DNA of 64,000 nucleotides from the NCBI GenBank assembly GCA_963669175.1, contig OY769902.1, positions 2,976,001 through 3,040,000 on the forward strand, given 5' to 3'. A model generated the notes under the pieces. That model did not search any database and was not told where the DNA came from. It saw only the letters and a list, made by a program, of their open reading frames with translations. Shown here one piece after another: positions 6,638 through 48,020 of the stretch (the first letter of the stretch is position 1; every line of letters starts with the position of its first letter). The translations under genes and the position numbers were made by a program. Source of the stretch: a bacterium (GTDB lineage Bacteria; Electryoneota; Electryoneia; Electryoneales; Electryoneaceae).

Positions 6638-8053
6638 CTACTTCTTCTTCCTGGGAAGAATATGTACCGGTTCACCTGCCGCCACTTCCGCCGCTTCCAT
6701 GATCGATTCCGACATGGTGGGGTGGGGATGGATGCTGACGATTAAATCTTCCAGAGTCGCGCCCATTTCGATAGCTACGGTGCCCTCGGCAATCAGTTCA
6801 GAAGCATGAGGACCAACGATCCCGACACCCAGAACCAGGTTCGTTTCCGGATCGGCCAGTATCTTTACAAATCCTTCCGTTCGTCCGATTGTTCGGGCAC
6901 GGCCAAGGGCTGTCAACGGGAAGCGTCCGATGTTGACCTTAATATCTTTTTCTTCCGCTTCACGTTCGGTAAGGCCCACCCAGGCAATTTCCGGATCAGT
7001 AAAGATCACTGCGGGAACCGCACGGTTGTCGAACGCTGATGGATGGTCCGCGATGACTTCTGCCGCAACCTTACCCTCACGACTGGCCTTGTGTGCCAGT
7101 GCAGGACCATAGGTGATATCACCGATTGCGAAAATATGCGGCACATTGGTACGGCACTGTTCATCGGTTGGGATGAAGCCGCGTTCGTCGAGATTGACGC
7201 CCGCTTTGTCAATCCAGAGCTTGTCCGTGTTGGGACGACGTCCCACAGCGACGAATACCTGGTTGACTTCACGGGTCAATACTTCATCACCATGTTCGAT
7301 ATCCACCTGGTAGCCGTTGTCGGATTTGCGTACATCGACCACCTTGGACTCGACCAGCACCTCTTCGAATTTCTCTTCGCAGTGCTTCACTACCACGTTG
7401 ACCAGGTCGTGATCCGCGCCCAGCAGCAGACGTGGGGCGAATTCGACCATATGAACCTTGGAACCCAGCCCGGCATACACCAAGCCCAATTCCATGCCTA
7501 TGTATCCACCACCCACTACCAGCAGGCTTTCCGGAATCTCCGGGATGTTTACGGCTGTTTCACTGTCCCACAAGGGAAGGTCATAGTCGCCGGGCAACTC
7601 GTTAATCCGCGAGCCGGTTGCGATGATGCAGTGCTTGAACTCGACATGAGTATTCGCGCCTTCCACATTCACCAGATTCGGGCTCTCGAAATGAGCGTGG
7701 CCAGTGATAATGTCCACACCGCGCTTGGTCAACAGTGTATCAATACCACCTGTAAGTGAGGTGACGACATTTCCGGTATACTCACGCAACTTGTCCAGGT
7801 CGATTTCCGGTTTCTGGAAAGTCAGACCCATTTTATGACCATGAGAAGCTTCTTCAATCACTTCTACCGCATGGATCAGGGTTTTCGATGGGATACAGCC
7901 TTCAATCAGGCAGACACCACCAAGTTTGTCTCGTTCTTCAATCAGGGTAACATTCAGCCCCAGGTCCGCTGCACGTATGGCAGCCACATAGCCCCCCGGG
8001 CCTCCGCCTATGACCAGTACATCGGTCTCCAGCGTCATTTCGCCCACTACCAT
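6638..8053 (-). CDS. lpdA: Dihydrolipoyl dehydrogenase (E3)
   Basis: GGGPGG, GGVCLIEGCIP disulfide motif, HPHPTMSE. Confidence 0.96.
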   Translation of the reverse strand: MVVGEMTLETDVLVIGGGPGGYVAAIRAADLGLNVTLIEERDKLGGVCLIEGCIPSKTLIHAVEVIEEASHGHKMGLTFQKPEIDLDKLREYTGNVVTSLTGGIDTLLTKRGVDIITGHAHFESPNLVNVEGANTHVEFKHCIIATGSRINELPGDYDLPLWDSETAVNIPEIPESLLVVGGGYIGMELGLVYAGLGSKVHMVEFAPRLLLGADHDLVNVVVKHCEEKFEEVLVESKVVDVRKSDNGYQVDIEHGDEVLTREVNQVFVAVGRRPNTDKLWIDKAGVNLDERGFIPTDEQCRTNVPHIFAIGDITYGPALAHKASREGKVAAEVIADHPSAFDNRAVPAVIFTDPEIAWVGLTEREAEEKDIKVNIGRFPLTALGRARTIGRTEGFVKILADPETNLVLGVGIVGPHASELIAEGTVAIEMGATLEDLIVSIHPHPTMSESIMEAAEVAAGEPVHILPRKKK

Positions 8054-8128
8054 GGTTTTATCTCCTCATCAAGTAAGCTCGTATCTGAAGCGCGCAATGT
8101 AGCGTCGCTATAATATTCTTTCGCTATG

Positions 8129-9478
8129 TTACACACTCAGCAGCAACTTCGTCGGGTTTTCCAGCATCTTGATCAGCTCGGTGACCATGTATGCCGCCTG
8201 GGCGCCGTCCGCGATACGGTGATCGAATGCCAGTGTCAAGGGCAGCATCTTCCGAATGACGATTTCACCGTCACGCACCACCGGCTTCTCCTGCACACGT
8301 CCCATGCCCAGAATTGCCACTTCCGGGTAATTGATCGTGGGGATCAACCCGGTGCCGCCGATCGGGCCGACGTTGGTGATAGAGATGGTGCCGTGCTGGA
8401 TATCCTGCGGTTCAATGTTGCCTTCACGCGCCCTGGTTGCGAGTTCGATAATTTCCTGGGAAATCTCAACGATACTCTTGTTGTTGGTATCCTTGACTAC
8501 CGGGACCATCAGGCCGCGAGGTGTATCCGCCGCGAAGCCGATGTTATAGAACTTCTTGTAAATGATCTCTTCACGGAAGGGATCAAGACTGGCGTTGAAC
8601 TGCGGGTACTTGCGCAGCATGGCCGTAAGCGCCTTCATCATGAAAGGCAGCAGGGTCAGACGCACGCCGGAGCCGTCCTGTTCGGCGGCTTTCTTTTCCG
8701 CGATACGAAGCTTCTCCAGCTCGGTCACATCCGCTTCATCCATATGTGCTACATGCGGCACGACTACCATCGAGGTGACCATCTTCTTCGCCACCTTGCG
8801 ACGAATGCTGCGGAACTGTTCGATCTCGACCGGTCCCTGCTGCGAGAAGTCGGGCAGGTCTTCCAGCTCGAGCAGCGGAATTCCGGACTTGGGAATCTCA
8901 ACCGCTTCACGTGGCGCGGCTTTGCTTGCTTGGGAAGCTGCCGGCGCTGTATCTGACGTCGCGACGGGCGCACCGCCATCCGCAAACGCTTGCACGTCTT
9001 CCGTGGTGACACGTCCACCCGGGCCGGTACCCGGAACCTGGTTGATGTCGATCCCCATTTCGCGTGCCAGCCTGCGAGTCGCAGGAGCTGCCGGAACCGG
9101 ACGACCATCCGCATGCTCAACAGCTTTCGCCACAGGTTTCGGCGCGGGCTTGGAAACAGACGCTTCCTGCTTCTTCGGCGCTGCTTCCTGTTTCGGAGCT
9201 TCTTCTTTCTTTTCCGGTGCGGGCAAACTGGCTTCGCCGCCACTGCCATCATCAATGATGACAAACACTTCGCCCACGTTCACCATGTCACCAACCTCGC
9301 CCTTACGATCCACGATCTTCCCGGAACGTGGTGAGGGGATGGTTACGGCTGCTTTATCAGTTTCAACATCGACAAGCGGTTCATCTTCTGTAATCTCACC
9401 GCCCTTGTCCACGTACCACTTCAAAATCTCGCCTTCCTGGATGCCTTCACCCAGGTCGGGCAGTTTAAACTCAAACAC
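8129..9478 (-). CDS. pdhC: Dihydrolipoamide acyltransferase (E2), one lipoyl domain
   Basis: ETDKA lipoyl-Lys, PATRRLARE binding domain, DHRIADG; GTG start. Confidence 0.92.
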   Translation of the reverse strand: MFEFKLPDLGEGIQEGEILKWYVDKGGEITEDEPLVDVETDKAAVTIPSPRSGKIVDRKGEVGDMVNVGEVFVIIDDGSGGEASLPAPEKKEEAPKQEAAPKKQEASVSKPAPKPVAKAVEHADGRPVPAAPATRRLAREMGIDINQVPGTGPGGRVTTEDVQAFADGGAPVATSDTAPAASQASKAAPREAVEIPKSGIPLLELEDLPDFSQQGPVEIEQFRSIRRKVAKKMVTSMVVVPHVAHMDEADVTELEKLRIAEKKAAEQDGSGVRLTLLPFMMKALTAMLRKYPQFNASLDPFREEIIYKKFYNIGFAADTPRGLMVPVVKDTNNKSIVEISQEIIELATRAREGNIEPQDIQHGTISITNVGPIGGTGLIPTINYPEVAILGMGRVQEKPVVRDGEIVIRKMLPLTLAFDHRIADGAQAAYMVTELIKMLENPTKLLLSV

Positions 9479-31559: not shown

Positions 31560-32636
31560 ATGAAAAGCTTACGCATTCCATTGCTGATAGTGTTTGTCAT
31601 GAGCGCGTTCAGCATGTTTAACGGCTGTACATCGAATTCAAAGGCGAAAGAAGCTGGATACGAGACTCGTGTGGAAGTCCAGCAGGTTCGTTACATCGAT
31701 GATCGTGAGCGGATTCGCTATAGCGGTACTATTGAAGAGTCCGTGACCATTCCTGCCGCATTTGCGGTCAACGGCATCGTCAGTGAAGTGTTTGTTCGTG
31801 AAGGTGAGAAAGTCCAGAAAGGTCAACTTCTGGCAACGCTTGATAATGCCACTTTCCAGAATGCTTACCTGATGGCGGAAGCTACGTATAAGCGTGCGAT
31901 TGATGCAGTAGAGAGGCTTCGTCCCATGCACGAAAACGGCAACCTGCCGGATATCAAGATGGTCGAAGCCGAAACAGGGCTTCAGCAGGCCACCGCTGCG
32001 CTTGAGTTGGCGAAAAAGAATCTCGCGGATTGTCAGTTGCTGGCCCCGGAAGCGGGGGTTGTCGGAAGGCGTTCCATTGAAGTCGGTGGCGGCGCTGCGC
32101 CGGGTGTTACGGCAATCAGGATAGTACAGATCAATCGTGTCAAGGCGGTCATAACGGTGCATGAAAATGAGATCAGTCAGCTTTCGCAGGGAATGACGGC
32201 GCTGGTGTCGATTCCTGCGTTGGGAAATCGTGACTGGGAAGCCCGGATTGACGAGATCGGTGTGGTAGCTGATCCTTTGTCGCACACCTACAAGGTAAAA
32301 CTGACCATCGCCAATCGTGATCACCAGATCAAGCCAGGCATGATCTGCAATGTGGTGGTCATTCATTCCAATGACGCGCCGGTTTTGTGTTTACCGATAG
32401 ATGCGGTTCAGGTTGACGAACACCGTAACAACTATGTCTTCGTGGTGAATACACATGAGATGACAGTCCATAAGAATCTGGTGAAAACGGGTGAATTTCT
32501 CCAGGATGGTCTGACTGTCAAAGACGGCCTGGAAGCTGATGATATTGTGGTTGTAAGCGGGCAGCACAAGCTGTATGAGAATGCACCAGTGGTTGTCATG
32601 AATATGGATGATGTATCCGGGAGCAGCCGGCAATGA
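31560..32636 (+). CDS. RND efflux periplasmic adaptor lipoprotein
   Basis: Lipobox FNGC, VREGEKVQKGQLLA, LLAPEAGVV, IKPGM. Confidence 0.9.
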   Translation: MKSLRIPLLIVFVMSAFSMFNGCTSNSKAKEAGYETRVEVQQVRYIDDRERIRYSGTIEESVTIPAAFAVNGIVSEVFVREGEKVQKGQLLATLDNATFQNAYLMAEATYKRAIDAVERLRPMHENGNLPDIKMVEAETGLQQATAALELAKKNLADCQLLAPEAGVVGRRSIEVGGGAAPGVTAIRIVQINRVKAVITVHENEISQLSQGMTALVSIPALGNRDWEARIDEIGVVADPLSHTYKVKLTIANRDHQIKPGMICNVVVIHSNDAPVLCLPIDAVQVDEHRNNYVFVVNTHEMTVHKNLVKTGEFLQDGLTVKDGLEADDIVVVSGQHKLYENAPVVVMNMDDVSGSSRQ

Positions 32637-35600
32637 AGATAATCGAAAAAGTCACCCAGGCTGCGCTGAACAATCAACAGGTTGTTATCGTCGTTACCGC
32701 AGCTCTGCTGGTTTTTGGAACAATCTCGTTGTTTGTCATGCCACGTCAGGAATTTCCTGAATTTGTCGTACGCCAGGGGATCATCGTCGGTGTATTTCCG
32801 GGCGCGTCTTCAGTAGAGGTAGAGGAGAGGCTGACAACCAAGGTTGAGAACTTCCTGTTCAGTTACGAGGAAGTGGACCGGAACAAAACCTATTCCATTT
32901 CTGAAGAAGGGATGATGTACATCTTCGTGGAAGTGCGCGGGGATGTGGAAGATGCGGATCTGTTCTGGGCGACATTGCGGCATGGTTTGCAGGAGTTGAA
33001 AGCGCAATTGCCGCAAGAAGTGCTGGCCTTGATTGCCAACAATAAATTCGGTGATGCCTCGGCTTTGTTGCTGACTTTACAGTCGGACAGGCGCACCTAC
33101 AAGGAGCTGGAAGAATACCTGAATGTGATCGAAGAGGAAATTCGCAAGCTTCCTTCTGTTTCGGCCATTAAACACTATGGCTTGCAGCGTGAAGTCATCA
33201 ATATCTACTTCGATAATGAGAAGATGGCTTCTTACGGAATCAATCCTTATACGCTGTTTGCCATGTTGCGAATGGAGAACTCGGTAACCTATGCCGGGAA
33301 CATTGATGACGGAAAAGTATCCATGCCCGTCCATCTTCCGGACAGGTATGAAACAGAGAAAGACCTGGCTGAACAGATAGTATATACCGATCCTCGTGGT
33401 GTTGTGGTTCGGTTGAAAGATGTCGCGCGTGTGGTTCGAGAGTATGAAGAACCGGATTCCTATGTCCAGATTGACGGTAATAATTGCATCGTCCTGAGCC
33501 TGGAAATGATGAACGGGAACAATATTGTCAAGTTCGGTAAAGACATTGATAAAATCCTGGAACAGACCCTGAAGACTCTTCCGCCGGATCTGCAAATCAA
33601 TACAATCGCTGATATGCCTCAAGCAGTGGACGAGGCTGTAACAGTATTTCTGCATGAGTTTGTCGTTGCAATCCTGGCCGTCATCATTGTGACGATGATT
33701 CTCCTTCCTTTCAGGGTATCCTCCATTGCCGCCTTGACCATACCGATCACAATTCTGGTTACGATGGGCCTGCTGTACATGCGTGGGATAGAGTTACACA
33801 CAGTTTCCCTTGCCGCACTGATCGTTGTTTTGGGAATGGTAGTTGACAATACTATTGTCATCATTGATAACTATGTGGAACAGCTTGACCAGGGCATTGA
33901 TCCCTGGAAAGCGGCGTGGCAGAGTGTTGCCGAGTTATTTATCCCCGTTTTCAGCGCCACGCTGGCCATCATCGCTGTGTTTGTGCCGATGACCATTTTC
34001 CTTACCGGTTTACCGGGTGATTTTGTCAAACCTTTCCCGGATACGATTATCATCACGCTTGGCGTTTCGCTTCTGGTTGCCGTGCTGATCGTGCCGATTC
34101 TTTCCTATACCATGATTAAAACCGGTTTACATAGTCAAAAGGATGAAACGAAAAAGAAGAAAATCTCCATGCTGGACCGTATGCAGAACAGTTACAACAG
34201 GATGATAGAATTCATTTTCAAACACAAAGGAATGATACTTCTGGGATCTGTTTTATTGCTGGCGCTTACTGGGGTAGTCGGTTCGAAACTGACCAGTAAG
34301 TTCGGACCTGTTGTGGATCGTGACCAGTTTGCGGTTGAGATTTACCTGGCGGAAGGAACATCACTGGATCTGACGGCCAAGGCTTGCGAAGATCTTCAGA
34401 ATGTTTTGTTACAAGATCCACGTGTAGAACATGTCACCGCATTTGTCGGCACAAGTTCGCCAAGGTTCCATTCGCTATACGCGCCCAATATGCCGGGTGA
34501 GAACTATGCGCAATTGATCGTAAATACTGTGTCCGTCAAAGCGACCAAGGAAGTTGTCGCGGAGTATGGAAGGACATACAAATCATCCGTTCCTGAAGCA
34601 TTTTATCGTTGGAAACAGCTCGAATTTACGAAATCGATTTATCCTATTGAAATACGAATTTCCGGCGATAACATCAGCGATTTGAAATCTGTCGGCGAAC
34701 GTGTGGAGCAGATTATCCGCGATACCGGCGGTGCATCCTGGATCAGAACGGATTACCGTGAACCGCTTCCCGGGATCAAGGTTCTGGCAAACGAAGATGA
34801 GGCCAACCGCCTGGGCCTGACCAAGGCCATGATTGCTTACACCATAGCATCCGGTGTTAAAGGACTGCCCCTTGCGACAGTCTGGGAGGGTGATTATCCG
34901 GTCAATATTGTTTTGCGCCAGGAAGCATCTGAGAAGACAGATGTGGAAGATTTGAAAAATATGTATATCAGCTCACCGTTCAGTCCTGTCTCTGTTCGAG
35001 CACGACAAGTAGCCAGGATTGAGCCTGAATGGACCGAGGGAGCCATTATAAGGCGAAATGGTAGACGGACTCTCACAGTTTGTGCGGATGTAAAACTTGG
35101 CGAGTTCGCTTACCGGATTTTCAATGAGATCAAACCTCAGATTGAAGGATTGGACCTTCCGGATGGAGTGTCGATTGCCTTTGGTGGGGATCACGAGACT
35201 GAAATAGAGACGTATACACCGTTCGTGTATTCTCTTATCACAAGCATTGTGGTAATCTTCTTCATCTTATTGTTCCAATTTAAAACTGTCCGCCTTTCCA
35301 TGTTGATCATGAGCATAGTCCCCTTCAGCGCATTCGGGGCGCTTGTCGGTTTGCTTCTCTTCAGGTATCCGTTCGGCATGACAGCGTTTATCGGTATCAT
35401 CAGTCTTGTGGGCATGGTCATACGTAATGGTGTCATCTACGTTGATTATGCGGAACATCTGCGAAATGAACAGGGGATGCCGTTGAATGAAGCAGCCCTT
35501 GCAGCCGCCAAACGCAGGTTGCGTCCCATCTTTCTGACATCAATGGCTGCGGCAGTAGGTGTGATTCCCATGATCATAAGTCGTTCGCCGTTATGGGGAC

Positions 35601-37072
35601 CGCTTGGGGCGGTAGTTTGTTTCGGTATGCTGTTTACCATGGTAATCACGCTGATTGTACTGCCGGTTCTCTATACGGTTTTCGGACCGGGTAAAAAGGC
35701 GTCAGTGAAAGGACTGAAGCCCGTCCTCACAGCGATGGTGATCCTTTCCCTCAGTCTGCTGGCAGGTTTTAATCAGGCGCAAGCGCAGAGTGCTCTGACA
35801 TTGGAGCAGGCAAAACAATTCGCCCTGGAAAACAGTATTGAGCTGAGAAATGCGCAGGAGGAAGTACGTGCTGCAAGGCACGTAAAGCGCAGTGCATTTA
35901 CCGGTTATTTCCCGGAAGTCAGCGCCACGGGGATGGTTATGAAAATGAATGATCCCCTGGTCGACTTCAAGATGGATGCCGTCAACCTCCCCGTTTATGA
36001 CGGCAACCCGGCCAACCTGCTTTCGCCAACCGAGTTCGCCTATTTCCCCGGACTGTCCCTCAATGCTGGAGAAGACGTGCTGACCGGCGCTGTCACAGCC
36101 GTACAACCGGTGTTTGCAGGTGGCCGCATTTTTAACGGAAATCGACTGGCGTCCATTGGGGTGGATGTCAGGGAGACACAGCGTGAACTGGCTGAAAAAG
36201 ATGTCCTGATAAAAACAGAACAACAGTACTGGCAACTGGTTTCCCTGAATGAAAAACTCAAGACCATCGAAGCCTACGAAACTCTACTGCTGGACCTTGA
36301 AGAACAGGTTCTCGATGCCTGGAACGCCGGCCTGGTACTCGAAAATGATGTGCTCAAGGTGCAGTTAAAGCTAAGTGAAATCCAGTTAAATAAATCGAAG
36401 CTCTTGAATGGGAAGAAGCTGGCGACCATGGCTTTCTGCCAGTACATCGGTATGCCCTACGATTCAACGATGACGCTTGCTTCCAGTATCGATGATATGG
36501 AAGCGGAGACGCTGAGGCATCTCGATCATGCCGCCGCTCTGGAATCTCGCGGTGAATACCGGTTGCTGCAAAAATCGGTGAAAGCATCCAAGTTGCAAAC
36601 GAATATGGCGATTGGTGAAAACATGCCGACAGTTGCGGTGGGACTGGCAGAATTCTACATGAAAGTGGATGACTACGATCACCTGGACAATGCTGTCGGG
36701 TTTGTCGCCATGCAGATTCCCATTTCAGGCTGGTGGGGTGGGTCTCATAAGATTGCTGAACACAAGGCACACCAGCGCATCGCTGAGAACAGGCTGGAAG
36801 ATTCCGAAGAGCTGCTTCTGCTGCAAATGGATAAAACCTGGCAGGACTACACAGAAGCGCAGGATCAATACAAACTCAGCCTGCAAACACAACAACAGGT
36901 ACAGACCAATGTGCGCGTAACCAAGTCTGCGTATGATAATGGAGTCGTAGATGTGTCCGATTTGCTGGAAGCGCAGGCGTTGTTACAGGAGGCCAATGAC
37001 CGTGTTATCGAAGCCAGAATCGATCTCCGGATGAAGAAACTTCAGTATCTGCAGGCAACGGGAAAGCTGTAG
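32633..37072 (+). CDS. RND permease (AcrB-like) fused to a TolC-like outer-membrane domain
   Basis: GMVVDNTIV, RLRPIFLTS in the first ~1020 aa; then LTLEQAKQFALENS, QPVFAGG, QIPISGW, SDLLEAQ. Confidence 0.9.
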   Translation: MKIIEKVTQAALNNQQVVIVVTAALLVFGTISLFVMPRQEFPEFVVRQGIIVGVFPGASSVEVEERLTTKVENFLFSYEEVDRNKTYSISEEGMMYIFVEVRGDVEDADLFWATLRHGLQELKAQLPQEVLALIANNKFGDASALLLTLQSDRRTYKELEEYLNVIEEEIRKLPSVSAIKHYGLQREVINIYFDNEKMASYGINPYTLFAMLRMENSVTYAGNIDDGKVSMPVHLPDRYETEKDLAEQIVYTDPRGVVVRLKDVARVVREYEEPDSYVQIDGNNCIVLSLEMMNGNNIVKFGKDIDKILEQTLKTLPPDLQINTIADMPQAVDEAVTVFLHEFVVAILAVIIVTMILLPFRVSSIAALTIPITILVTMGLLYMRGIELHTVSLAALIVVLGMVVDNTIVIIDNYVEQLDQGIDPWKAAWQSVAELFIPVFSATLAIIAVFVPMTIFLTGLPGDFVKPFPDTIIITLGVSLLVAVLIVPILSYTMIKTGLHSQKDETKKKKISMLDRMQNSYNRMIEFIFKHKGMILLGSVLLLALTGVVGSKLTSKFGPVVDRDQFAVEIYLAEGTSLDLTAKACEDLQNVLLQDPRVEHVTAFVGTSSPRFHSLYAPNMPGENYAQLIVNTVSVKATKEVVAEYGRTYKSSVPEAFYRWKQLEFTKSIYPIEIRISGDNISDLKSVGERVEQIIRDTGGASWIRTDYREPLPGIKVLANEDEANRLGLTKAMIAYTIASGVKGLPLATVWEGDYPVNIVLRQEASEKTDVEDLKNMYISSPFSPVSVRARQVARIEPEWTEGAIIRRNGRRTLTVCADVKLGEFAYRIFNEIKPQIEGLDLPDGVSIAFGGDHETEIETYTPFVYSLITSIVVIFFILLFQFKTVRLSMLIMSIVPFSAFGALVGLLLFRYPFGMTAFIGIISLVGMVIRNGVIYVDYAEHLRNEQGMPLNEAALAAAKRRLRPIFLTSMAAAVGVIPMIISRSPLWGPLGAVVCFGMLFTMVITLIVLPVLYTVFGPGKKASVKGLKPVLTAMVILSLSLLAGFNQAQAQSALTLEQAKQFALENSIELRNAQEEVRAARHVKRSAFTGYFPEVSATGMVMKMNDPLVDFKMDAVNLPVYDGNPANLLSPTEFAYFPGLSLNAGEDVLTGAVTAVQPVFAGGRIFNGNRLASIGVDVRETQRELAEKDVLIKTEQQYWQLVSLNEKLKTIEAYETLLLDLEEQVLDAWNAGLVLENDVLKVQLKLSEIQLNKSKLLNGKKLATMAFCQYIGMPYDSTMTLASSIDDMEAETLRHLDHAAALESRGEYRLLQKSVKASKLQTNMAIGENMPTVAVGLAEFYMKVDDYDHLDNAVGFVAMQIPISGWWGGSHKIAEHKAHQRIAENRLEDSEELLLLQMDKTWQDYTEAQDQYKLSLQTQQQVQTNVRVTKSAYDNGVVDVSDLLEAQALLQEANDRVIEARIDLRMKKLQYLQATGKL

Positions 37073-37568: not shown

Positions 37569-37803
37569 ATAAAACCGAGAACAGCTGTATTTTCTTCTTT
37601 CAGTCCTTTTCCTTATACTCAATCGCACTGAAGGGAAAGCGCATTGGAGTGGAAAACTTCTCTGGAGTATACCAGCGATTGGAATCTTGGAGAGACAGAC
37701 CGTATAATCAAAGCTACCTTGGTTTCCTACTCATGTTGGAATCTCCCAGGTCCAGGGGAGACCTGGAGATCGTTTTGCGGCGCCGTAAGCAGGGAGGCTA
37801 TTG

Positions 37804-39141
37804 ATGCGGCCTGGATTCATTGTAGTAGTCCTACTACTTTTTTTCATGATTCTAATTGGGGCTCCGGTCACACCGGCATTTGCCGACAGTGACAATAACG
37901 ATAGCGCTCCATCAGATAGCATAAAGCAATGGAAAGATAAGAACCTCAAGAAATCAGCTCTTGCCTGGACCGGAAGCGCTATCGGGGATGTCATCTACTT
38001 TCCATTCTGGCTTACGTTTTCCATTCTCAAAGAAGGCGTAACAATCGTTGAAAAGACAAAGATTGTTGAAAAAATCGACGATTTGCTCACCAAGGATGAC
38101 GGCACCCGGAAACTGGAACCGATTATCTCGCCAAGCAGGGGCATTGGAGGACGACTTATCCTGAAACGGCACGGTGATGACCTTGCACGTCTGAATCTTG
38201 CCGCATCAGGATTACATGAAGGAAGAAGCCTCGAAGAGCTAGAGCTGGCTGATGTTCCGTTGGCCGGTCGCGCCCTGATGATGAACCTTTACGGATTCTA
38301 CGCACGCATGCCGGAAGAACCGTTCTTCGGGTACGGACCGCATTCTTCCTATGAGATGGGTAGCGAATTCGGGATTGAACGCTTCGGTGGTGAACTCGGG
38401 CTGGCTTCAGAAGTTCTGCAACATGTCGAGCTTGAAGGTTTTGGCGGATACCAGTCTACACGTTCCTTCCGTGAAGAGGAAGAAGATGATGGTAACACAG
38501 GCGATGATTTTCCTGATAATCCGCTTTGGTCGATCACTCCGCTGAACACTTATCCCGGTGGGGATGAAAGGGTTGAACTGATGTTTGTCGGCGCCGGTTT
38601 TTCAATCGACAAACGCAATCATTTGGGCATTCCCACAAAAGGCTATCAGTTTACACTGACGTCCAGCCTGTTCACTGAAGTGGAAGAAGAGAATTTCGGC
38701 TTCCTGAAAACCTACGTCGATTTCCGGAAGTATATCCATCTTTTTTACGGACGTACCCTGATCGTCCGCATGGCTGGTGAGTTTACTGATCCCTTCGATG
38801 ACCGGATGATCCCTTTCTACAACCTTTCCGAGATTGGTGAAACCAATACGGTGCGCGGGTTTAAACGTGGACGTTTCAGGGATAATGATGCCGTTTACGG
38901 AACCCTGGAATACCGTGTCCCGATCCGGGATGTCTGGCAGGAATCCGGGTATGATTTCCATGTGTTCGCAGATGGCGGCCAGGTTGCTTCGGATATCTTC
39001 CAGGATTTCACCTGGAAGAATTCGCAAGCCGGTTTTGGTTTTGGAGTAAGAACCTGGAACCTGGAAAAAGAAGCGTTACGGGTTGATTTCGGGTTCTGCC
39101 GTGACGGTTTCAGAATCTACCTCGTACTGAATGCCATCTAG
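37804..39141 (+). CDS. Omp85/BamA-TamA-family outer-membrane barrel without evident POTRA domains
   Basis: Signal peptide, DKRNH..PTKG, VRGFKRGRFRD loop-6 motif, EYR, GFGFGVR, LRVDFG. Confidence 0.8.
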   Translation: MRPGFIVVVLLLFFMILIGAPVTPAFADSDNNDSAPSDSIKQWKDKNLKKSALAWTGSAIGDVIYFPFWLTFSILKEGVTIVEKTKIVEKIDDLLTKDDGTRKLEPIISPSRGIGGRLILKRHGDDLARLNLAASGLHEGRSLEELELADVPLAGRALMMNLYGFYARMPEEPFFGYGPHSSYEMGSEFGIERFGGELGLASEVLQHVELEGFGGYQSTRSFREEEEDDGNTGDDFPDNPLWSITPLNTYPGGDERVELMFVGAGFSIDKRNHLGIPTKGYQFTLTSSLFTEVEEENFGFLKTYVDFRKYIHLFYGRTLIVRMAGEFTDPFDDRMIPFYNLSEIGETNTVRGFKRGRFRDNDAVYGTLEYRVPIRDVWQESGYDFHVFADGGQVASDIFQDFTWKNSQAGFGFGVRTWNLEKEALRVDFGFCRDGFRIYLVLNAI

Positions 39142-39151
39142 GGGATTGACC

Positions 39152-40849
39152 ATGTTGACCATAAAACAGCTTTCAAAACATTTTGCCGGTGTTGTTCTGA
39201 TTGGAACAGTCGTAGCGGTGTTTTCCGGGTGTGCGGCGCATGAGAAGTTTATCCCGCCAGATCCGCTACCCAGTGATAATAACAGTGTGCCGACCCCGGA
39301 ATACAGGGGGGCGCCGCTTGATTTTGAAGACGCCCTGGACAAACAGCTTATCCTGCAGGGTGACCAGTTATGTGATTTTACCCGTGCCTATGGCAATGTT
39401 ACGGATCGCCCCAAACAGGCGCTGAACTTGACCGCGTTTGATGAGGTTCCGAATTCGACCTGGTTCACCAATCGTAACGCGACAAAACCGATGAGCCTGG
39501 AAGAAATACGGATCGGTCCGGATAAGGGAAATGGACCTGATCCCAACACCACGTGGATTATCAAACGGGCCAAGGCGGAAGGAGTGACTCCGGGATTCCA
39601 TATCAAGGACGGTCATGGAGATCGGTATGTGATCAAGTTTGATCCTATCGGATTCTCGGGGTTGAATTCCGGCGCGGAAGTTGTTGGAACCAAGCTCTTC
39701 TATGCCGCCGGATACAATACTCCGGAAAATTATATCGTCTATTTCAATCCTGATATTCTGGAGATGGGTGATGGCGTAAAGATCGTGGACGAGAAAGGTC
39801 GTAAACGTCTGATGACGGAAGAGGATCTGGAAGCGATCCTGGCGCGTGTGGAATATCGTGAAGATGGCACCATTCGTGCCTTGGCAAGCAAATATATCCC
39901 CGGGAATCTGCTCGGACCTTTCGATTTCGAGGGAGTTCGCAAGGATGACCCCAATGATTTTGTCCCGCATGAACACCGCCGCGAGTTGAGAGGACAGAGA
40001 ATATTCGCCACCTGGATCAACCATATTGACGCCAAGCAGGCGAACTCGATGGACACTTACATCGGGGAGGAAGGTGAAGGGCATGTTATTCACTATATGA
40101 TGGACTTCGGCACCACCTTGGGCAGTGGCGGGCGTGGTCCCCATCCGAAATACCGTGGTCATCAGAACGAACTCGATCCGCATGGAGTCCTGTTCAAGAT
40201 ACTCACTCTCGGATTCTGGGTTGAGGATTGGGAAAAGACGGATACTGTAGCCTATCCCAGCGCGGGACGGTTTTCACCGACTGATGTTGACCCGGATGGT
40301 TTCAAATTCATCTTCCCGAACCCGGCCTACGATAACTGCACTGATCTGGATGGATACTGGGGCGCTAAGCTGGTTATGTCTTTCCGGGATGATCAGCTTG
40401 CAGCGGCCGTGTCAACAGGACAATACCCGTATGACGCTGCTGAGTATCTGACCAAAACCCTGATCAGCAGACGGGATATTATTGGTCGTTTCTGGTTTGA
40501 CCGGGTCGCGCCATTGGATTGGTTCAAACTGGAGAAGGATCAGGAAAACAACCTGTCGCTAGTCTGGACAGATCTTGCCGTGGAATATAACCTGGAAGAT
40601 GATGGGAAAACGCTTTACACCTGTGAATTAAGTATGGACGCCGGTAAGACGGTGTTCTATTCTGCAGAATCGACCAGCGGGCAGGTGCTGTTACAAAATA
40701 TCCCCTGGGATTCGGGAGATCAGCTCATGGTGACCATCCGACTGCAACGCCCCGGTGAGAAGGAACAAAGCCGCTGGACAAAGGTGTACCTTGAGCGAGA
40801 TCCGGAAACCGGCGCTCCCTGCCTGGTTGGGTTGCAACGGGAAGAATAG
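39152..40849 (+). CDS. Hypothetical lipoprotein with atypical kinase-like (HipA/PI3K-like) motifs
   Basis: Lipobox FSGC; EGVTPG, YVIKFD, AEVV, NHIDAKQAN, MDFG. Confidence 0.65.
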   Translation: MLTIKQLSKHFAGVVLIGTVVAVFSGCAAHEKFIPPDPLPSDNNSVPTPEYRGAPLDFEDALDKQLILQGDQLCDFTRAYGNVTDRPKQALNLTAFDEVPNSTWFTNRNATKPMSLEEIRIGPDKGNGPDPNTTWIIKRAKAEGVTPGFHIKDGHGDRYVIKFDPIGFSGLNSGAEVVGTKLFYAAGYNTPENYIVYFNPDILEMGDGVKIVDEKGRKRLMTEEDLEAILARVEYREDGTIRALASKYIPGNLLGPFDFEGVRKDDPNDFVPHEHRRELRGQRIFATWINHIDAKQANSMDTYIGEEGEGHVIHYMMDFGTTLGSGGRGPHPKYRGHQNELDPHGVLFKILTLGFWVEDWEKTDTVAYPSAGRFSPTDVDPDGFKFIFPNPAYDNCTDLDGYWGAKLVMSFRDDQLAAAVSTGQYPYDAAEYLTKTLISRRDIIGRFWFDRVAPLDWFKLEKDQENNLSLVWTDLAVEYNLEDDGKTLYTCELSMDAGKTVFYSAESTSGQVLLQNIPWDSGDQLMVTIRLQRPGEKEQSRWTKVYLERDPETGAPCLVGLQREE

Positions 40850-40882
40850 GAGTACAAGGACGCTGGTATAACCTTAGCGACA

Positions 40883-41201
40883 GTACAGGTGGTCCCGAAT
40901 AGGTGATCCCGAATAGGTGATCCCGAACAGATGGGGCCGAACAGGGTGGGCCGAAAGTATTTGCTGATTCGAAAGTGTGCTGAATCAAAAGTATTTGCTG
41001 AATCGAAAGTTTTTGCTGATTCGATAGTATTTGTTGACTCGAAAAGTATTTGCTGATTCGAAAGTATTTGCTGAATCGAAAGTATTTGCTGATTCAAAAG
41101 TATTTGCTGATTCGAAAGTGTGCTGAATCGAAAGTGTTTGCTGATTTAAAAGTGTTTGCTGAATCGAAAGTATTTGCTGATTTAAAAGTGTTTGCTGATT
41201 C
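40883..41201 (+). repeat. Tandem arrays: 5 x 14 bp then 14 x ~18 bp
   Basis: GAATAGGTGATCCC-like units, then GAAAGTATTTGCTGA(T/A)TC units at 40953-41201 with no spacers. Confidence 0.9.
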
Positions 41202-41209
41202 GAAAATAT

Positions 41210-41415
41210 TTAGCCTGCTTTAGCAGGCTCCTCTTAGCACCCGGCTTTAGCCGGGTGGATGGATATAACAAATGCTATGAGCGCGCTTTAGCGTGCTTTA
41301 ACGTCATAGAACCTATACGAATCAGGAAAGCACCCTGAAGGGCGCTCGAACCGTTGTTGTCCTTGTTCCCCCGGCTAAAGCCGGGGGCTAAGAGGAGCAG
41401 GCTAAAGCCTGCTAA
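41210..41415. repeat. Multi-hairpin inverted element (REP family C, GCTTTAGC loops)
   Basis: About 49-bp inverted arms, each with two hairpins preceded by TTAG, plus an inner hairpin pair. Confidence 0.8.
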
Positions 41416-41436
41416 CACAAGTAAATAGATATTATC

Positions 41437-41565
41437 GAAAGCGTGCAATCGAAAGCGTGCGATCAGGGAGCGTGCAATCGGAAGCATGCAATCAGGGAGC
41501 GTGCAATCGAAAGCGTGCAATCGAAAGCGTGCAATCAGGGAGCGTGCAATCGAACGAGTGCAATC
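41437..41565 (+). repeat. Tandem array, 9 x 14-15 bp
   Basis: GAAAGCGTGCAATC / AGGGAGCGTGCAATC units. Confidence 0.9.
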
Positions 41566-41671
41566 AGGAAGAAGCAGACTCTGGATAAGACAAATGTCCA
41601 GTGCCAGAAAGAAGCTGCCGCCAACCTGAAACGGTAAAGGCATTCGGGAACGACTATACAAGCGAGAATAC

Positions 41672-42925
41672 ATGAATCGGCTATTTCAAAAATTTATCCT
41701 TTTGACCTTGTCGGCTGGGATGCTGTGGGTGACGTCGGGATGTGCTTCAAAGGCGCTGCTTACCGATACCTATGCACCTGATGATGTAAGAATAACTCAA
41801 GTTCAACTTGAGAATTCGGAATCATTGAATCCTACTATCCTGTTAATGGGCGATTCGCAACCGTCATGGCGTGTCATCGAGAAATTCTATAAGAAGGAAA
41901 ACGTAGCTACCTGGTGGCAGCTTGCCGTTCCTTTTTACCAGGTTTACTGGATTGGCAACGGAATCATCGGTGGTATCAATTACCTGCGTTTTTATCCTGA
42001 TGCCGGGCATCAGGAACGGGTGAAACTCAGGACTGCGTTGGAAGACGCGATTCAATCCGATCACCCCGACGCCATTTTGCATGTGGGAGATATGGCCGGT
42101 TCGGATGGGCGTTATGCTGAGCATTGGGATTATTTTCTGGATGATTTCTGGTTCGACCACAAGTTATTCCGTGAAATCCCGGTACTGACCACAATCGGCA
42201 ATCACGAGTGGGCCAACGACACCACATTCGGTTTCCCAAATTATGAAGCCGTTACCGGGACCGAGCGATTTTATACAGTTGAGTTCCGTGATGCTGTGCT
42301 GATCGTAATGGATTCCAATTTCCTCGTGGATCAGTGGGGATTGATTCCGGATGATGAACAGGACGCCCTGTTCAATGAATGGTTCGTGTCTGAACCTGGC
42401 GAGGAAGCGTCCTGGCTTGAAAAGCAGCTTGACACCTATAAGGACAAGGCATTTAAAATCATCTCAATGCACCATCCACCGGTTACGTTCGGTTGGCATG
42501 AAAAGGATTGGTACAAAGAGAACAATGGGCGCGAACTGGTCAGCAAACGTCGTCGTTTCCTGGATACTATCCGGCAGGGGGGAGTGCAGCTCATCCTTTC
42601 CGGACATGAGCATATTTATGAACATGTGGAAGTCCATTTCGATAGCGATGACGATACTGCCGAACCGTTGCATATTGCCGTAGTCACTGGCGGTACAATG
42701 ACCAGACAACCGCCGGGCGAAAACGCAATCGCTGAGATGCAGCAGAAATATGATGAACTCTCAGGGCTGAATGCTGAACCTGTACTGATTACGGATAAAT
42801 CACATTATGGGATTCTTGAAATTACGGATGAGAAAATGACTGTTCGTGTATTGGAAGTAAAAGACGATGGCGCTGTAGTGGAGATGGAATCATTCAGTAT
42901 CAAATCACCGGGAAGTCAGAAGTAA
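41672..42925 (+). CDS. Metallophosphoesterase lipoprotein (purple acid phosphatase-like)
   Basis: Lipobox TSGC; GDSQ, VGD, GNHE, HHPP, GHEH. Confidence 0.85.
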   Translation: MNRLFQKFILLTLSAGMLWVTSGCASKALLTDTYAPDDVRITQVQLENSESLNPTILLMGDSQPSWRVIEKFYKKENVATWWQLAVPFYQVYWIGNGIIGGINYLRFYPDAGHQERVKLRTALEDAIQSDHPDAILHVGDMAGSDGRYAEHWDYFLDDFWFDHKLFREIPVLTTIGNHEWANDTTFGFPNYEAVTGTERFYTVEFRDAVLIVMDSNFLVDQWGLIPDDEQDALFNEWFVSEPGEEASWLEKQLDTYKDKAFKIISMHHPPVTFGWHEKDWYKENNGRELVSKRRRFLDTIRQGGVQLILSGHEHIYEHVEVHFDSDDDTAEPLHIAVVTGGTMTRQPPGENAIAEMQQKYDELSGLNAEPVLITDKSHYGILEITDEKMTVRVLEVKDDGAVVEMESFSIKSPGSQK

Positions 42926-42943
42926 CAACCGGGAGAGCGGGAG

Positions 42944-44281
42944 ATGTCGAACCCATTGGTGAAATCGTTTATGGACATTCGCAGGAACGAGTGGCCACTG
43001 GCGTTGTCCATGTTTGGTTATTTCTTCCTCGTGATTACCAGCTTCTGGATTCTGAAACCGATCAAGAAATCACTGTTCCTTCAATATTATGATGCTTCCG
43101 GTCTGGATCTCTGGACGTGGCATCTGGGCGCGGCGCAGGCGGAACTGCTGGCCAAGGTCATGAACATGATTGTCGCGTTTGTGGCTGTCGTTGTTTTCAC
43201 CTGGCTGGTACGCAAATTCAGACGTCAGCAACTTACGTACATCTTCACCATCTTCTTTATGGTTGCCTATGTGTTGTACAGCCTGGTGATTTCGAAACAG
43301 GGCGATCTGATCGTCTGGAGTTTCTACCTGTTTGGTGATTTGTACAGCACCCTGATGGTCGCCACCTTTTTCGCTTTCCTGAACGATTCTGTCTCATCGC
43401 AGGCTGCCAAGCGTCTGTATGGTTTGATCGGGCTTGGCGGGGTGACCGGCGGTGTCTTTGGGACCATGTTTGTCCGGATCTGGATCAAGACACTTTCCAT
43501 TCCCGCATGGTTATGGATCTGTTTCGGGATTGCTGCGGTGATCGCGTTGCTGGCATGGGTCGCAGGGAGCATGGTAGATCGAATACGTGATGATGAACCG
43601 GTCAAACCAGCGCCAAAACCAATGAAAACAACACCTGAAAAGGATGGCAATCCAGCATTCGAAGGCGCCCTTCTGGTATTCAAGAATTCGTACCTGCTGG
43701 CTATCGTGGGTATTGTAGGATTATACGAAATCGTTTCCACGCTGATGGATTTTCAGTTCTCCGCTACCATCGTGCATTACCTGGACGGTGAGGCAATTGG
43801 ACAGCAGTTCTCTACGGTTTTTCTGATCACCAACATTACTTCCATGGTGGTACAGTTATTCCTGACCAGTTTCATTATGACCCGGCTTGGTCTGACCACT
43901 GCGCTGCTGGCGCTTCCCTTTGCCGTGATTCTTGGTTCATTTGGATTCCTGGCGTTTCCCGTGTTGTGGGTTGGCAGCTTCCTGAATACAGCGGACAATG
44001 GCTTCAGCTATTCCATCAACCAGTCTGCCAAGGAGACGCTGTACGTTCCCACAACCCGTGATGAGAAATACAAGGCGAAAGCGTTTATCGACATGTTTGT
44101 CCAACGCTTTGCCAAAGCGCTCGCGGTTGGGATCAGCCTGATCGTCACGACTGTGTTCACTTCCTTCGAATCGCTTCGCTGGCTTTCACTGGTCACACTG
44201 GCTGTCGCTGCCCTTTGGGTGTTCATCGCGTTTTATGCGGGGAAGAGGTTCAAAAACCTGTCCGGGGAAATGCACCAATAA
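42944..44281 (+). CDS. NTT/TLC-family nucleotide (ATP/ADP-type) translocase, MFS fold
   Basis: About 12 hydrophobic helices; ILKPIK, RLYGLIG, YSINQSAKETLYVP, KYKAKAFID..QRF. Confidence 0.8.
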   Translation: MSNPLVKSFMDIRRNEWPLALSMFGYFFLVITSFWILKPIKKSLFLQYYDASGLDLWTWHLGAAQAELLAKVMNMIVAFVAVVVFTWLVRKFRRQQLTYIFTIFFMVAYVLYSLVISKQGDLIVWSFYLFGDLYSTLMVATFFAFLNDSVSSQAAKRLYGLIGLGGVTGGVFGTMFVRIWIKTLSIPAWLWICFGIAAVIALLAWVAGSMVDRIRDDEPVKPAPKPMKTTPEKDGNPAFEGALLVFKNSYLLAIVGIVGLYEIVSTLMDFQFSATIVHYLDGEAIGQQFSTVFLITNITSMVVQLFLTSFIMTRLGLTTALLALPFAVILGSFGFLAFPVLWVGSFLNTADNGFSYSINQSAKETLYVPTTRDEKYKAKAFIDMFVQRFAKALAVGISLIVTTVFTSFESLRWLSLVTLAVAALWVFIAFYAGKRFKNLSGEMHQ

Positions 44282-46305: not shown

Positions 46306-46968
46306 ATGCAGACAGGATTGGCCCTGAACACAGATGGACTAGCAGTGGACGACGCTCAGACACGTAGAAAAAACTATGTGCCGAACGACGCTGTCGCAGC
46401 AGCAGAGGTACTCACGGACGAATCCGATGCGGAATGGTTCGAGCTGCTGGAACAGGATCGTGAACGTGCGTTTGTGCTTTTAGTTGAACGGTACAGGACC
46501 GAGATCTTTGATTTATGTGTAAGGATAAGTGGCAACAGGAGCGAAGCGGAAGACCTGACCCAGGAAACATTCATCAAGGCGTACCAGAATTTAGGGTCAT
46601 TTCGACGTGATGCAAGGATGCGCACCTGGTTGTATCGAATCGCGATTAATCGTTCGATCAGTTTTACACGACGGCTAAAGCGGTGGCGGATGCAACGTGG
46701 AAACGATGAGGAGATTTTTCCGGAACTGCCTGAACTGGCCAATCCTTCGGCTGAGCAGGAGACGGAATGGAAAGATCTGGCAGAAAAAGCGCATGAAGCA
46801 TTGCATGAACTTTCACCCCGTCAGCGTACGGCTGTTATTTTACGGGTGTTGAAAGAGATGACCTACGAGGATGTGGCAGCAGCGATGGGCACATCAGTTG
46901 GTGGTGCAAAAGCCAATGTTTTCCAAGGGTTAAAGAAGCTTCGGGCCACGTTGGAGGAGCAATCATGA
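46306..46968 (+). CDS. ECF RNA polymerase sigma factor
   Basis: AEDLTQETFIKAY, TWLYRIAIN, LSPRQR...TYEDVA. Confidence 0.93.
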   Translation: MQTGLALNTDGLAVDDAQTRRKNYVPNDAVAAAEVLTDESDAEWFELLEQDRERAFVLLVERYRTEIFDLCVRISGNRSEAEDLTQETFIKAYQNLGSFRRDARMRTWLYRIAINRSISFTRRLKRWRMQRGNDEEIFPELPELANPSAEQETEWKDLAEKAHEALHELSPRQRTAVILRVLKEMTYEDVAAAMGTSVGGAKANVFQGLKKLRATLEEQS

Positions 46969-47465
46969 GTGAAGAGTTTAACAACCGCGAGTTTGATATT
47001 TATAAGCAGGTCGGTTTTCAACCACCTGCTGACGATGAGTTCGCAAGCCGTGTTCGTGGTATTGCGATCAAGCGCAGAAAACAGGCGCAAGTTCGGAATA
47101 CCGTCGGCGCAACCGTCATGACCATGATATTGATTTCAGGTATCTACCTTGGGGCAAACTGGATGGACCCCCAGGGAAGAGGTCAGGTTACCCCGGATAT
47201 GTTTGCAGATCTTGAAAATCAGTCCTTGATTACCCATACTACCAGTGAGCTGGCGCAGACTGATATCGATCTTGAAGAGCTGACAGTATTGACCCTGATG
47301 GACGAGGATACAACAACCTCATATGATGATTTTTATAACCTTTTCGCTGGGACAGAGAGTTCTGATGATCCAGTCGAAACATTAACCGGTCTTGACGATC
47401 AGAGTCTCGAAGAAGCGCTTCAATGGCTTGAAGACACTGAAATTGAACTATGTCCACAGTGTTGA
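46965..47465 (+). CDS. Putative anti-sigma factor (single transmembrane helix)
   Basis: ATGA overlap with sigma gene; basic patch, one TM helix, acidic C-terminus. Confidence 0.6.
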   Translation: MSEEFNNREFDIYKQVGFQPPADDEFASRVRGIAIKRRKQAQVRNTVGATVMTMILISGIYLGANWMDPQGRGQVTPDMFADLENQSLITHTTSELAQTDIDLEELTVLTLMDEDTTTSYDDFYNLFAGTESSDDPVETLTGLDDQSLEEALQWLEDTEIELCPQC

Positions 47466-47489
47466 CAGGATTTTGAGGAGGATAGAGAG

Positions 47490-48020
47490 ATGAGAAAACG
47501 TAACGGGATTATTGCCGGGTTTCTGGTTTTGCTGGTAGCCGGACTGGCCTTCAGTCAGCCCATGCCGCCGATGAATGATGGACCCCGACGTCAGCAGGTG
47601 CGTGAGCGGGTTCGAGAGATAAAAATGCTCAAGCTCATGGAAGTGCTTCAGTTGAGCGAGGACCAATCTGCACGGTTCTTCCCACGGTATCGTGACGCAG
47701 AAGACAAGATTGATGCCCTCAATGACGAGATGGAAGAAGTGCTGAACGAACTCAGTGAAGCATCAATTGACAATAGCAAGAAGGATATTGATGCTTTAAT
47801 CGAACGGTATTCGGCTTTGGTAAAGCAGCAAGTCGATGTTCAGCTTGAGTTGGTTACTTCAGTAGCAGACATCCTGTCGGCGAAGCAGCGTGCCGGTCTG
47901 ATCGTATTTGAAAGGCGATTCCAGAATCGTTTGCGGGATTTGAAGCATGAATGGGGAGGAGATGTTCCTCCGCCAGGACGTCACCGCAGAGGTGGTGGTG
48001 GACCTTCCTGGGATGAATAA
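47490..48020 (+). CDS. Spy/CpxP-like periplasmic helical protein
   Basis: Signal peptide, LQLSEDQ and ILSAKQ (LTxxQ-like) motifs. Confidence 0.7.
   Translation: MRKRNGIIAGFLVLLVAGLAFSQPMPPMNDGPRRQQVRERVREIKMLKLMEVLQLSEDQSARFFPRYRDAEDKIDALNDEMEEVLNELSEASIDNSKKDIDALIERYSALVKQQVDVQLELVTSVADILSAKQRAGLIVFERRFQNRLRDLKHEWGGDVPPPGRHRRGGGGPSWDE

Follow-up and report, generated by a model that had tools for sequence, protein, structure and literature searches.

Secretory-pathway kinases such as Fam20C are eukaryotic enzymes that are fed by an ATP/ADP exchanger (SLC35) of the endoplasmic reticulum (ER). The same logic, i.e., a kinase-fold enzyme in a compartment without ATP together with a carrier for ATP, may underlie a cluster of four genes in a window of 64,000 nucleotides from a bacterium of the phylum Electryoneota (GenBank assembly GCA_963669175.1, contig OY769902.1, positions 2,976,001 to 3,040,000 of the forward strand; 'window' refers to this whole stretch). 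The cluster encodes an Omp85 barrel, an exported protein that is called protein X or X below, a metallophosphoesterase lipoprotein and a carrier of the TLC/NTT family. Fam20C with its exchanger would be the closest functional analogy, but the carrier would be of the NTT/TLC type instead of the SLC35 type of the ER, the setting a bacterial envelope instead of a eukaryotic lumen, and the barrel without a counterpart.

Parts of the cluster also have relatives among described bacterial systems. In Leptospira, noNterm Omp85 proteins are encoded with adjacent lipoprotein genes (LIC12252/12254/12258); according to the available text of that study, their function is not known and surface exposure has been proposed for such pairs (PMC11358297). 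The Leptospira pairs and the present module have in common a POTRA-less Omp85, motifs of the RGF/FxDxG lid-lock type and a lipoprotein gene immediately 3', the barrels being likened here by description; the Leptospira lipoproteins carry DUF1566 or Big domains, whereas the lipoprotein here is kinase-like. Major, Embley and Williams (2017; PMC5381601) described an operon of an NTT-HEAT fusion and a protein binding cyclic nucleotide monophosphates (cNMP) in free-living bacteria and, in the available part of their paper, left its function open. Relatives of the module and the host genome share with that operon the same TLC domain and the order of an NTT-HEAT gene followed by a cNMP-binding gene, and many of the phyla listed in the available text also bear the module. 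Neither 'kinase' nor 'outer membrane' nor 'export' turned up in a term search of that text, relative to which the link of the carrier to a barrel-X pair is new. Finally, a PAP2 phosphatase gene next to that of a kinase-like protein, as seen for some relatives of X, is also known from SEAE1, a PAP2-PIK-like module of Segetibacter that its authors, in the part of the preprint available, relate to phospholipid homeostasis (bioRxiv 10.64898/2026.09.18.752743). SEAE1 is described there as non-secreted and cytoplasmic, in a lineage-specific arrangement without barrel or carrier, and is set apart from X by this description. The literature searched contains no description of an exported HipA-like kinase, of a barrel-kinase pair or of ATP export by an NTT. 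Against this background, the core of the module is formed by the POTRA-less Omp85 barrel and the exported kinase-like protein X, with the carrier as a frequent partner and the phosphatase as an accessory.

Protein X belongs to a large family, with more than 2276 homologues in one sequence collection and, at 50% identity, 3743 clusters in a second one; wherever the source records give a name, it is 'hypothetical protein'. The 150 matches listed in a search of all representatives with X are all close family members and provide no bridge to named families. The X sequence displays, in the order of a protein kinase, EGVTPG (residues 150-155), YVIKFD (166-171), AEVV (182-185), NHIDAKQAN (297-305) and MDFG (324-327). 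These segments would supply the core features of a kinase, namely a Gly-rich loop (150-155), Lys169, Glu183, a catalytic loop with His298, Asp300, Lys302 and Asn305, and the triplet Asp325-Phe-Gly. An alignment of 35 relatives shows no variation at K169, D300, K302, N305 and D325-F-G. In a more diverse set of 131 relatives, 126 retain K169, 127 each D300 and D325, and 124 N305, and 122 have Glu or Asp at position 183. Three residues outside the canonical kinase motifs, H280, R284 and R287, are conserved more strictly than these classical catalytic residues, as they occur in 131 out of 131.

The relationship to known kinases was approached by profile comparison. A lax Pfam scan of the 35 relatives gave a weak HipA_2 match in seven of them (E-values from 0.011 to 10). 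A homologue search seeded with the sole HipA_2 protein of the host phylum yielded two proteins only; HipA_2 sequences were gathered from genomes of another phylum, and the comparison set comprises 29 genome-derived sequences of 241-345 amino acids. With 35 rows in the X alignment, hhalign matched X to HipA_2 at 55% (E = 1.2e-4), and with 131 rows against the 29 HipA_2 sequences at 95.4% (E = 2e-8). The latter alignment spans 146 columns, places X residues 144-333 on HipA_2 residues 7-156 and keeps the Gly-rich loop, the Lys, the Glu, the catalytic Asp...Asn and the metal-binding Asp in register. Its score of 68.1 compares with 18.6 for a reversed HipA_2 profile and at most 18.8 for 20 column shuffles, the P-values of the controls being at least 0.14. 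Since the catalytic residues are kept in at least 122 of the 131 relatives and the HipA_2 alignment beats its controls, we do not regard the kinase motifs of X as a product of chance. Matches of X to 13 HipA_C sequences (P = 9.4e-4) and to 29 Pkinase sequences (P = 1.6e-3) are weaker than that to HipA_2, yet they are in register as well, with NHxDxKxxN falling on HRDxKxxN and IDFG on DFG, and they score better than these known relatives do against each other (0.011 to 0.14). In a language-model Atlas, the named clusters nearest to X are those of Fam20C, HipA_2, LepB_N and PI3/PI4 kinases (0.77-0.79), which serve as leads only; this also holds for the nearest of them, a bacterial cluster bearing Fam20C (0.79). 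An Atlas query with the C-terminal part of X (residues 340-572) returned no usable match.

On the strength of these profiles, X very probably belongs to the protein-kinase-like superfamily and is of the HipA type. With HipA_2 (PF20613) and HipA (PF07804) its core would share the Gly-rich loop, the Lys, the Glu, the Asp...Asn pair and the Mg-binding Asp. Nonetheless, X is twice as long as HipA_2, and the conserved regions N- and C-terminal of its core match no known family; unlike HipA kinases, it is predicted to be exported, is paired with an Omp85 barrel rather than an antitoxin, and has a catalytic loop of the form HxDx(K/R)xxN that resembles eukaryote-type kinases. As X does not pass the membership test of Pfam and stands apart from HipA kinases in length, cellular location and partner genes, we treat it as a new family within this superfamily.

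Export appears to be a general trait of the X family, judging from the N-termini, while a lipid anchor does not. A hydrophobic N-terminus is present in 123 of the 131 relatives. A relaxed lipobox pattern is found in 60 of the 131; among other relatives, the Cys lies in a different context or the signal peptide is a plain one. In one representative (P0243; 782 amino acids), a Pro/Ala-rich linker joins X (residues 34-439) to a membrane PAP2 domain (644-754; E = 4.3e-13). Both PAP2 motifs (PSGH and SxxxxHxxxD) are present in this protein, the catalytic loop of its X part reads HTDCSARN, and DFG is replaced by DFS. Judged by eye, X is followed by two hydrophobic segments before the first PAP2 motif is reached, which would place the PAP2 active site on the same side as X. 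The active site of PAP2 is extracytoplasmic in characterised members. A search for fused X forms longer than 1051 amino acids found none, which is weak evidence. The sequence-only reading that preceded this work, made from the nucleotide sequence without database searches, had described the product of the gene starting at 39152 as an exported lipoprotein with kinase motifs in kinase order and had likened it to HipA/PI3K-like kinases. Export, the kinase motifs and the likeness to HipA were recovered at the level of the family, and the Lys and Asp residues whose variability would have spoken against a kinase are kept in 126-127 of the 131 relatives.

The gene upstream of X encodes a Pfam Omp85 domain (residues 236-430; E = 1.9e-17; 64.2 bits against a cut-off of 24) behind a Sec-type signal peptide (...PAFA/DS). 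In the Pfam scan, no POTRA match at E ≤ 0.01 and no family besides Omp85 and, below its cut-off, ShlB was obtained for the window barrel. The PDB matches of a profile of 37 barrel orthologues are confined to the barrels of BamA and TamA (best E = 5.9e-14, for BamA barrels), and the orthologues have about 70-100 conserved N-terminal residues to which no family was matched. By these sequence criteria, the window barrel is classified as a POTRA-less, noNterm-type Omp85. Its partner-barrel relatives retain the RGF and FxDxG (F-A-D-G-G) motifs, which correspond to the Omp85 lid-lock motifs in the available text of PMC11358297. A two-partner secretion transporter (TpsB/ShlB) was considered and rejected, as the ShlB score of 19.3 bits stays below the cut-off of 22.7 and no POTRA was found.

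The linkage of barrel and X was surveyed in the best 80 of 479 confirmed loci from species-representative genomes. Among the 71 loci with at least 1300 bp of upstream DNA, an Omp85 homologue on the same strand ends at most 600 bp upstream of X in 70, the exception being L034. The barrel is thus the obligate upstream partner of X. The host genome holds a second, diverged pair at about 1.452 Mb, with overlapping genes for X (L160, 6126-7802, minus strand) and the barrel (7793-9163, minus strand). The second X copy matches the family profile at E = 1.5e-137 and has the motifs DIRIDN and MLDFG; its barrel is blank in Pfam and matches the partner-barrel profile at E = 2e-23. Two barrel-X pairs each also occur in the loci L056, L059 and L066, and they are adjacent in L056 and L059. 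In four loci (L037, L038, L052 and L059, e.g., L059 2694-4391), a POTRA-bearing Omp85 of about 565 amino acids is encoded immediately upstream of the POTRA-less barrel.

A complex of the mature parts of both window proteins (barrel 29-446 and X 36-572) was predicted with a score of 0.58 (0.53, 0.58 and 0.58 in separate runs), the best of three controls scoring 0.00. Of 80 solved complexes, 58 reach the mark applied to this score, as do two of 110 mismatched pairs; the range up to 0.60 holds only seven of those solved complexes together with both passing mismatches. At least 92% of the contacts are shared between the runs, the partner has a predicted per-residue confidence (pLDDT) of at least 86, and X one of about 87. 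As the gene linkage made binding a likely guess beforehand, we consider it probable that barrel and X form a complex. The proposal of the sequence-only reading that the barrel exports or anchors a component of the system stands for the gene pairing and is weakly backed for the binding itself.

The fourth gene of the cluster had been called an NTT/TLC carrier, and this identification holds in Pfam, where TLC (PF03219) is matched at E = 2.7e-19 with 69.8 bits against a cut-off of 21. Solved NTT1 ADP/ATP carriers (PDB 9j3j and 9j3n) are matched at E = 1.9e-7 and 6e-7, with a common stretch YS...KE...Y.P......K.KA.ID near the C-terminus. The carrier is classified by its sequence as a distant member of the TLC family, in an uncharacterised subfamily. 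Carrier and phosphoesterase were counted in the 59 of the 80 loci that include at least 3 kb of DNA downstream. By tblastn, a TLC homologue starts on the same strand within 6 kb downstream of X in 35 of these 59 loci, and one is found anywhere in the locus in 40. Orthologues downstream of X in other phyla are 61-69% identical to the window carrier, compared to about 45-55% for X and about 30% for the barrel. At the genome level, 22 of the 79 genomes of the host phylum have X, 18 have TLC and 17 have both. In 15 of these 17, X is followed within 4.2 kb by a short TLC gene (440-470 amino acids; 551 in G034), and the single genome with TLC only has an NTT-HEAT gene only. A second phylum gives a similar picture across 167 genomes (X 42, TLC 46, both 36, X only 6, TLC only 10, neither 115), in which 23 of the 36 X-TLC pairs lie on one contig within 10 kb by hand count. 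It is likely that X and the carrier are functionally linked.

The phosphatase is a looser companion. The window protein matches Metallophos (PF00149; E = 2.9e-12; 47.9 bits against a cut-off of 21.5) and has the motifs GDSQ, GDMAG, GNHE, MHHP and GHEH. The full set of metallophosphoesterase motifs previously read from it is confirmed by Pfam and by four of these motifs, but not by the first, which lacks the usual His (GDSQ instead of GDxH). The pattern resembles that of purple acid phosphatases in sequence, and weak PDB matches were obtained to a purple acid phosphatase (E = 8.3e-4) and a GpdQ-like phosphohydrolase. A metallophosphoesterase is present in 14 of the 59 loci, in 15 of all 80 by tblastn, and in 18 loci plus the window by clustering. 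A PAP2-like open reading frame (ORF) is found in nine of the 80, and either of the two enzymes in 24 of the 80. The metallophosphoesterase is therefore an accessory that is interchangeable with PAP2 and not part of the core. The gene-neighbourhood survey that the sequence-only reading had proposed as a check thus upholds the barrel-X pair fully and the carrier for the most part, the latter also through co-occurrence in two phyla. The phosphatase, which had been counted as a part of the module, keeps an accessory role, in which PAP2 replaces or joins it elsewhere. An anti-phage defence system was also considered and dropped: none of the four module proteins matched a PADLOC defence model at E ≤ 0.01, and the one relation to defence consists of weak NCBIfam matches of the phosphoesterase far under the cut-offs.

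When all ORFs from the 80 loci were clustered and examples were checked against Pfam, a wider recurrent order emerged: one or more histidine kinases, sometimes PAP2, the barrel, X, sometimes the metallophosphoesterase, a short TLC, an NTT-HEAT fusion (about 945 amino acids), a cNMP-binding protein (150 amino acids) and a response regulator. This order is Pfam-verified in L013 and derived elsewhere from cluster labels, of which the TLC label covers TLC, NTT-HEAT and cNMP-binding genes alike. In the host genome, the NTT-HEAT gene (954 amino acids; L159 6575-9439) and its cNMP-binding partner (148 amino acids; L159 9466-9912) lie about 94 kb downstream of the window carrier, flanked by asparagine synthase and aminotransferase genes and apart from the barrel-X cluster. 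Record titles assign module-bearing genomes to Calditrichota, Zixibacteria, KSB1, Latescibacterota, Bacteroidota, Acidobacteriota, Fibrobacterota and other phyla. In some loci, a protein of 428-450 amino acids without Pfam family is encoded directly 3' of X, before the carrier or PAP2 (L061 4158-5438, L065 8734-10020 and L071 6586-7938).

A catalytically intact, exported kinase-like enzyme with a barrel and with carriers, phosphatases and signalling genes nearby is most simply accounted for by a phosphorylation cycle in the envelope. The periplasm is normally free of ATP. In the proposed cycle, the barrel would hold X at the outer membrane, and the TLC/NTT carrier in the inner membrane would swap cytoplasmic ATP for periplasmic ADP, providing the periplasm with a phosphoryl donor. 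In many relatives, the second carrier, HEAT-fused and followed by the cNMP-binding protein, would probably gate this supply. X would then phosphorylate a substrate in the envelope, and the metallophosphoesterase lipoprotein, or PAP2 elsewhere, would strip the phosphate or clear spent nucleotide. For the substrate, we would first think of the head group of a lipid or glycolipid and not of a protein, because of the PAP2 link through neighbours and fusion, the lipid-kinase leads in the Atlas and the three invariant basic residues. What we infer in this account are the docking, weakly backed by the complex prediction, the outward transport, the use of ATP, the substrate and the roles of the phosphatases. 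Taken as a whole, the chain from ATP supply by the carrier, through phosphorylation by a barrel-docked envelope kinase, to reversal by phosphatases is a tentative account that we place somewhat short of probable. More doubtful is its widest form, in which a regulated phosphorylation cycle fuelled by ATP would operate in the periplasm or at the outer membrane of many free-living diderms, with NTTs exporting ATP, the barrel-docked kinase marking an outer-membrane lipid or glycolipid, PAP2 or metallophosphoesterase erasing the mark, and a cNMP-gated NTT-HEAT and two-component control on top.

A number of observations weigh against this envelope cycle. The kinase fold of X is deduced from sequence profiles: the window protein has no Pfam match at E ≤ 0.01, does not reach the HipA_2 gathering score and belongs to no NCBIfam family, and a PDB search with the X profile gave chance matches only (E = 0.069 for an IgA receptor, E = 1.2 for a homeobox protein). 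Position 302 in the catalytic loop is occupied by Arg in 61 of the 131 relatives and by Lys in 49. The predicted complex of barrel and X passes weakly. The window carrier scores 62.3 bits against NCBIfam TIGR00769 (NTP/NDP exchange transporter), below the cut-off of 387.2. In 19 of the 59 loci, no TLC was found by tblastn with the window TLC, although one of these (L068) has TLC-family ORFs upstream by ORF clustering, and neither carrier nor phosphatase lies near the second barrel-X pair of the host genome. X occurs without TLC in five of the 22 X-positive genomes of the host phylum, three of which have an X fragment only; as the five include a genome with a completeness of 94% (G005), the dependence of X on the carrier is not absolute. 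In the second phylum, six of the 42 X-positive genomes are without TLC and ten of the 46 TLC-positive ones without X. The co-occurrence counts of both phyla (79 and 167 genomes) are uncorrected for relatedness, and the survey of loci leans to close relatives. Finally, all characterised NTTs import nucleotides into a cell or organelle according to the available text of PMC5381601.

The direction of transport is also an argument for an alternative based on scavenging of nucleotides or phosphate, in which the barrel would admit, or X capture, extracellular nucleotides or nucleic-acid fragments, the phosphoesterase trim them and the carrier import nucleotides into the cytoplasm, with X binding or converting nucleotides instead of phosphorylating the envelope. 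The window carrier indeed matches ADP/ATP carriers, the phosphoesterase is weakly similar to cyclic-nucleotide and glycerophosphodiester phosphodiesterases, and bearers of the module belong mostly to sediment and soil lineages by their record titles. Yet simple binding would not call for the catalytic Asp, the Asn and the Asp of DFG, which are kept in 124-127 of the 131 relatives, and the trimming enzyme is missing in 45 of the 59 loci. Moreover, the PAP2 neighbours and the PAP2 fusion better match lipid-phosphate chemistry, and Omp85 barrels serve as insertases or translocases whose lumen is lid-locked, not as nutrient channels, as far as the available text of PMC11358297 goes. We regard scavenging as unlikely on balance. 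Two further alternatives, equal to each other, appear less likely still. In the one, the POTRA-less Omp85 is a dedicated translocase that flips or exposes X at the surface, where X acts on environmental, prey or neighbour substrates with extracellular nucleotide, and the carrier link reflects nucleotide recovery or regulation instead of supply. Such display would agree with the strict barrel-X pairing and the weakly supported binding, with the barrel-X pairs that have no carrier in a minority of loci and genomes, and with the order of barrel and then lipoprotein, as in the Leptospira pairs in the available part of PMC11358297. It would leave the X-carrier association in two phyla without explanation, about half of the X relatives have no lipobox Cys and appear to be soluble exported proteins, and the X-PAP2 fusion would tie X to the periplasmic face of the inner membrane.

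The other alternative assigns different chemistry to the kinase-like fold, a situation known for some atypical members of the superfamily: X would be an AMPylase or nucleotidyl-transferase, a phosphotransferase with a lipid pyrophosphate or polyphosphate donor, or a pseudoenzyme that regulates the barrel. PAP2 partners include phosphotransferases such as LpxT, and the usual lack of ATP in the periplasm, the invariance of H280, R284 and R287 and the Arg/Lys alternation at position 302 fit here as well. A pseudoenzyme is contradicted by the retention of the entire canonical set (Lys, Glu, Asp, Asn and the Asp of DFG), and the linked nucleotide carrier suits a nucleotide co-substrate.

The features of the cluster are collected in Table 1. 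The sequence-only reading had placed four co-oriented genes at 37804-44281, which is borne out by the Pfam calls and by the positions of the ORFs, all confirmed on the plus strand. The stop of the barrel gene overlaps the longest reading of the X start, so that the first two genes overlap or abut.

Table 1. Coordinates of the barrel-X cluster in the window.
Feature	Position	Strand	Description
Omp85 barrel gene	37801..39141 (alternative start 37804)	+	446 aa, Pfam Omp85
Protein X gene	39131..40849	+	572 aa, or 565 aa if the ATG at 39152 is used; predicted exported lipoprotein, very probably of the protein-kinase-like superfamily
X lipobox VFSG-C, Cys34	39230..39232	+	Motif read from sequence
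X kinase-like core, residues 144-333	39560..40129	+	In-register alignment to HipA_2, HipA_C and Pkinase profiles
Tandem-repeat spacer, 820 bp	40850..41671		Divides the barrel-X pair from the phosphoesterase-carrier pair
Metallophosphoesterase lipoprotein gene	41672..42925	+	417 aa, Pfam Metallophos, lipobox TSG-C
TLC/NTT-family carrier gene	42944..44281	+	445 aa, MFS fold, Pfam TLC

The spacer contains repeats between window positions 40885 and 41571, with an 18-bp unit in 14.6 copies, a 14/29-bp unit in about 5-9 copies and a 14-bp unit in 2.9 copies, and it also holds short GC hairpins of the form GCTTTAGC/GCTAAAGC. The 18-mer occurs in 27 copies genome-wide with at most two mismatches, compared to none for a backwards control. 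A scan for promoters and terminators gave no excess over shuffled sequences (9 versus a mean of 8.7; 12 versus a mean of 9.1).

The module is flanked by an efflux operon upstream and by a TetR gene and a methyltransferase gene downstream, with no sign that any of these belongs to it. The efflux operon includes a single ORF of 1479 amino acids (window 32633-37072, plus strand) that combines a complete AcrB-type RND pump (ACR_tran, residues 10-1017) with a TolC-like OEP part (from residue 1057). At the junction, there is an additional hydrophobic segment ending in AQAQ/S, which resembles an internal signal peptide. The ORF is preceded by a TetR gene and a gene for a membrane-fusion protein. An inner-membrane pump fused with its own outer-membrane duct is an unusual arrangement. 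At 2 kb 3' of the carrier gene, a gene for a sigma factor of the extracytoplasmic function (ECF) type is followed by two small ORFs (window 46306-48020, plus strand), one of which has a single hydrophobic segment and is anti-sigma-factor-like.

As a system, the module is without a described counterpart, and with it the question of NTT function in free-living bacteria becomes directly testable. In the textbook view, periplasm and outer membrane are without ATP and envelope processes are powered indirectly. If the envelope cycle proposed here is true, it would be the first dedicated ATP-dependent phosphorylation system in the bacterial envelope, a counterpart of the eukaryotic secretory-pathway kinases, and the rule that there is no ATP-dependent chemistry in the periplasm would be overturned. 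NTTs, so far known as importers in parasites and plastids, would run in reverse. Two orphan groups would gain a function, namely the POTRA-less Omp85 proteins and the NTT and NTT-HEAT carriers of free-living bacteria, a matter open since at least 2017 by the available text of PMC5381601. The family assignment of X would annotate thousands of 'hypothetical' genes (3743 clusters) across many poorly studied phyla. Even without ATP export, the strict pairing of a barrel with a kinase-like protein would probably represent a new kind of outer-membrane complex.

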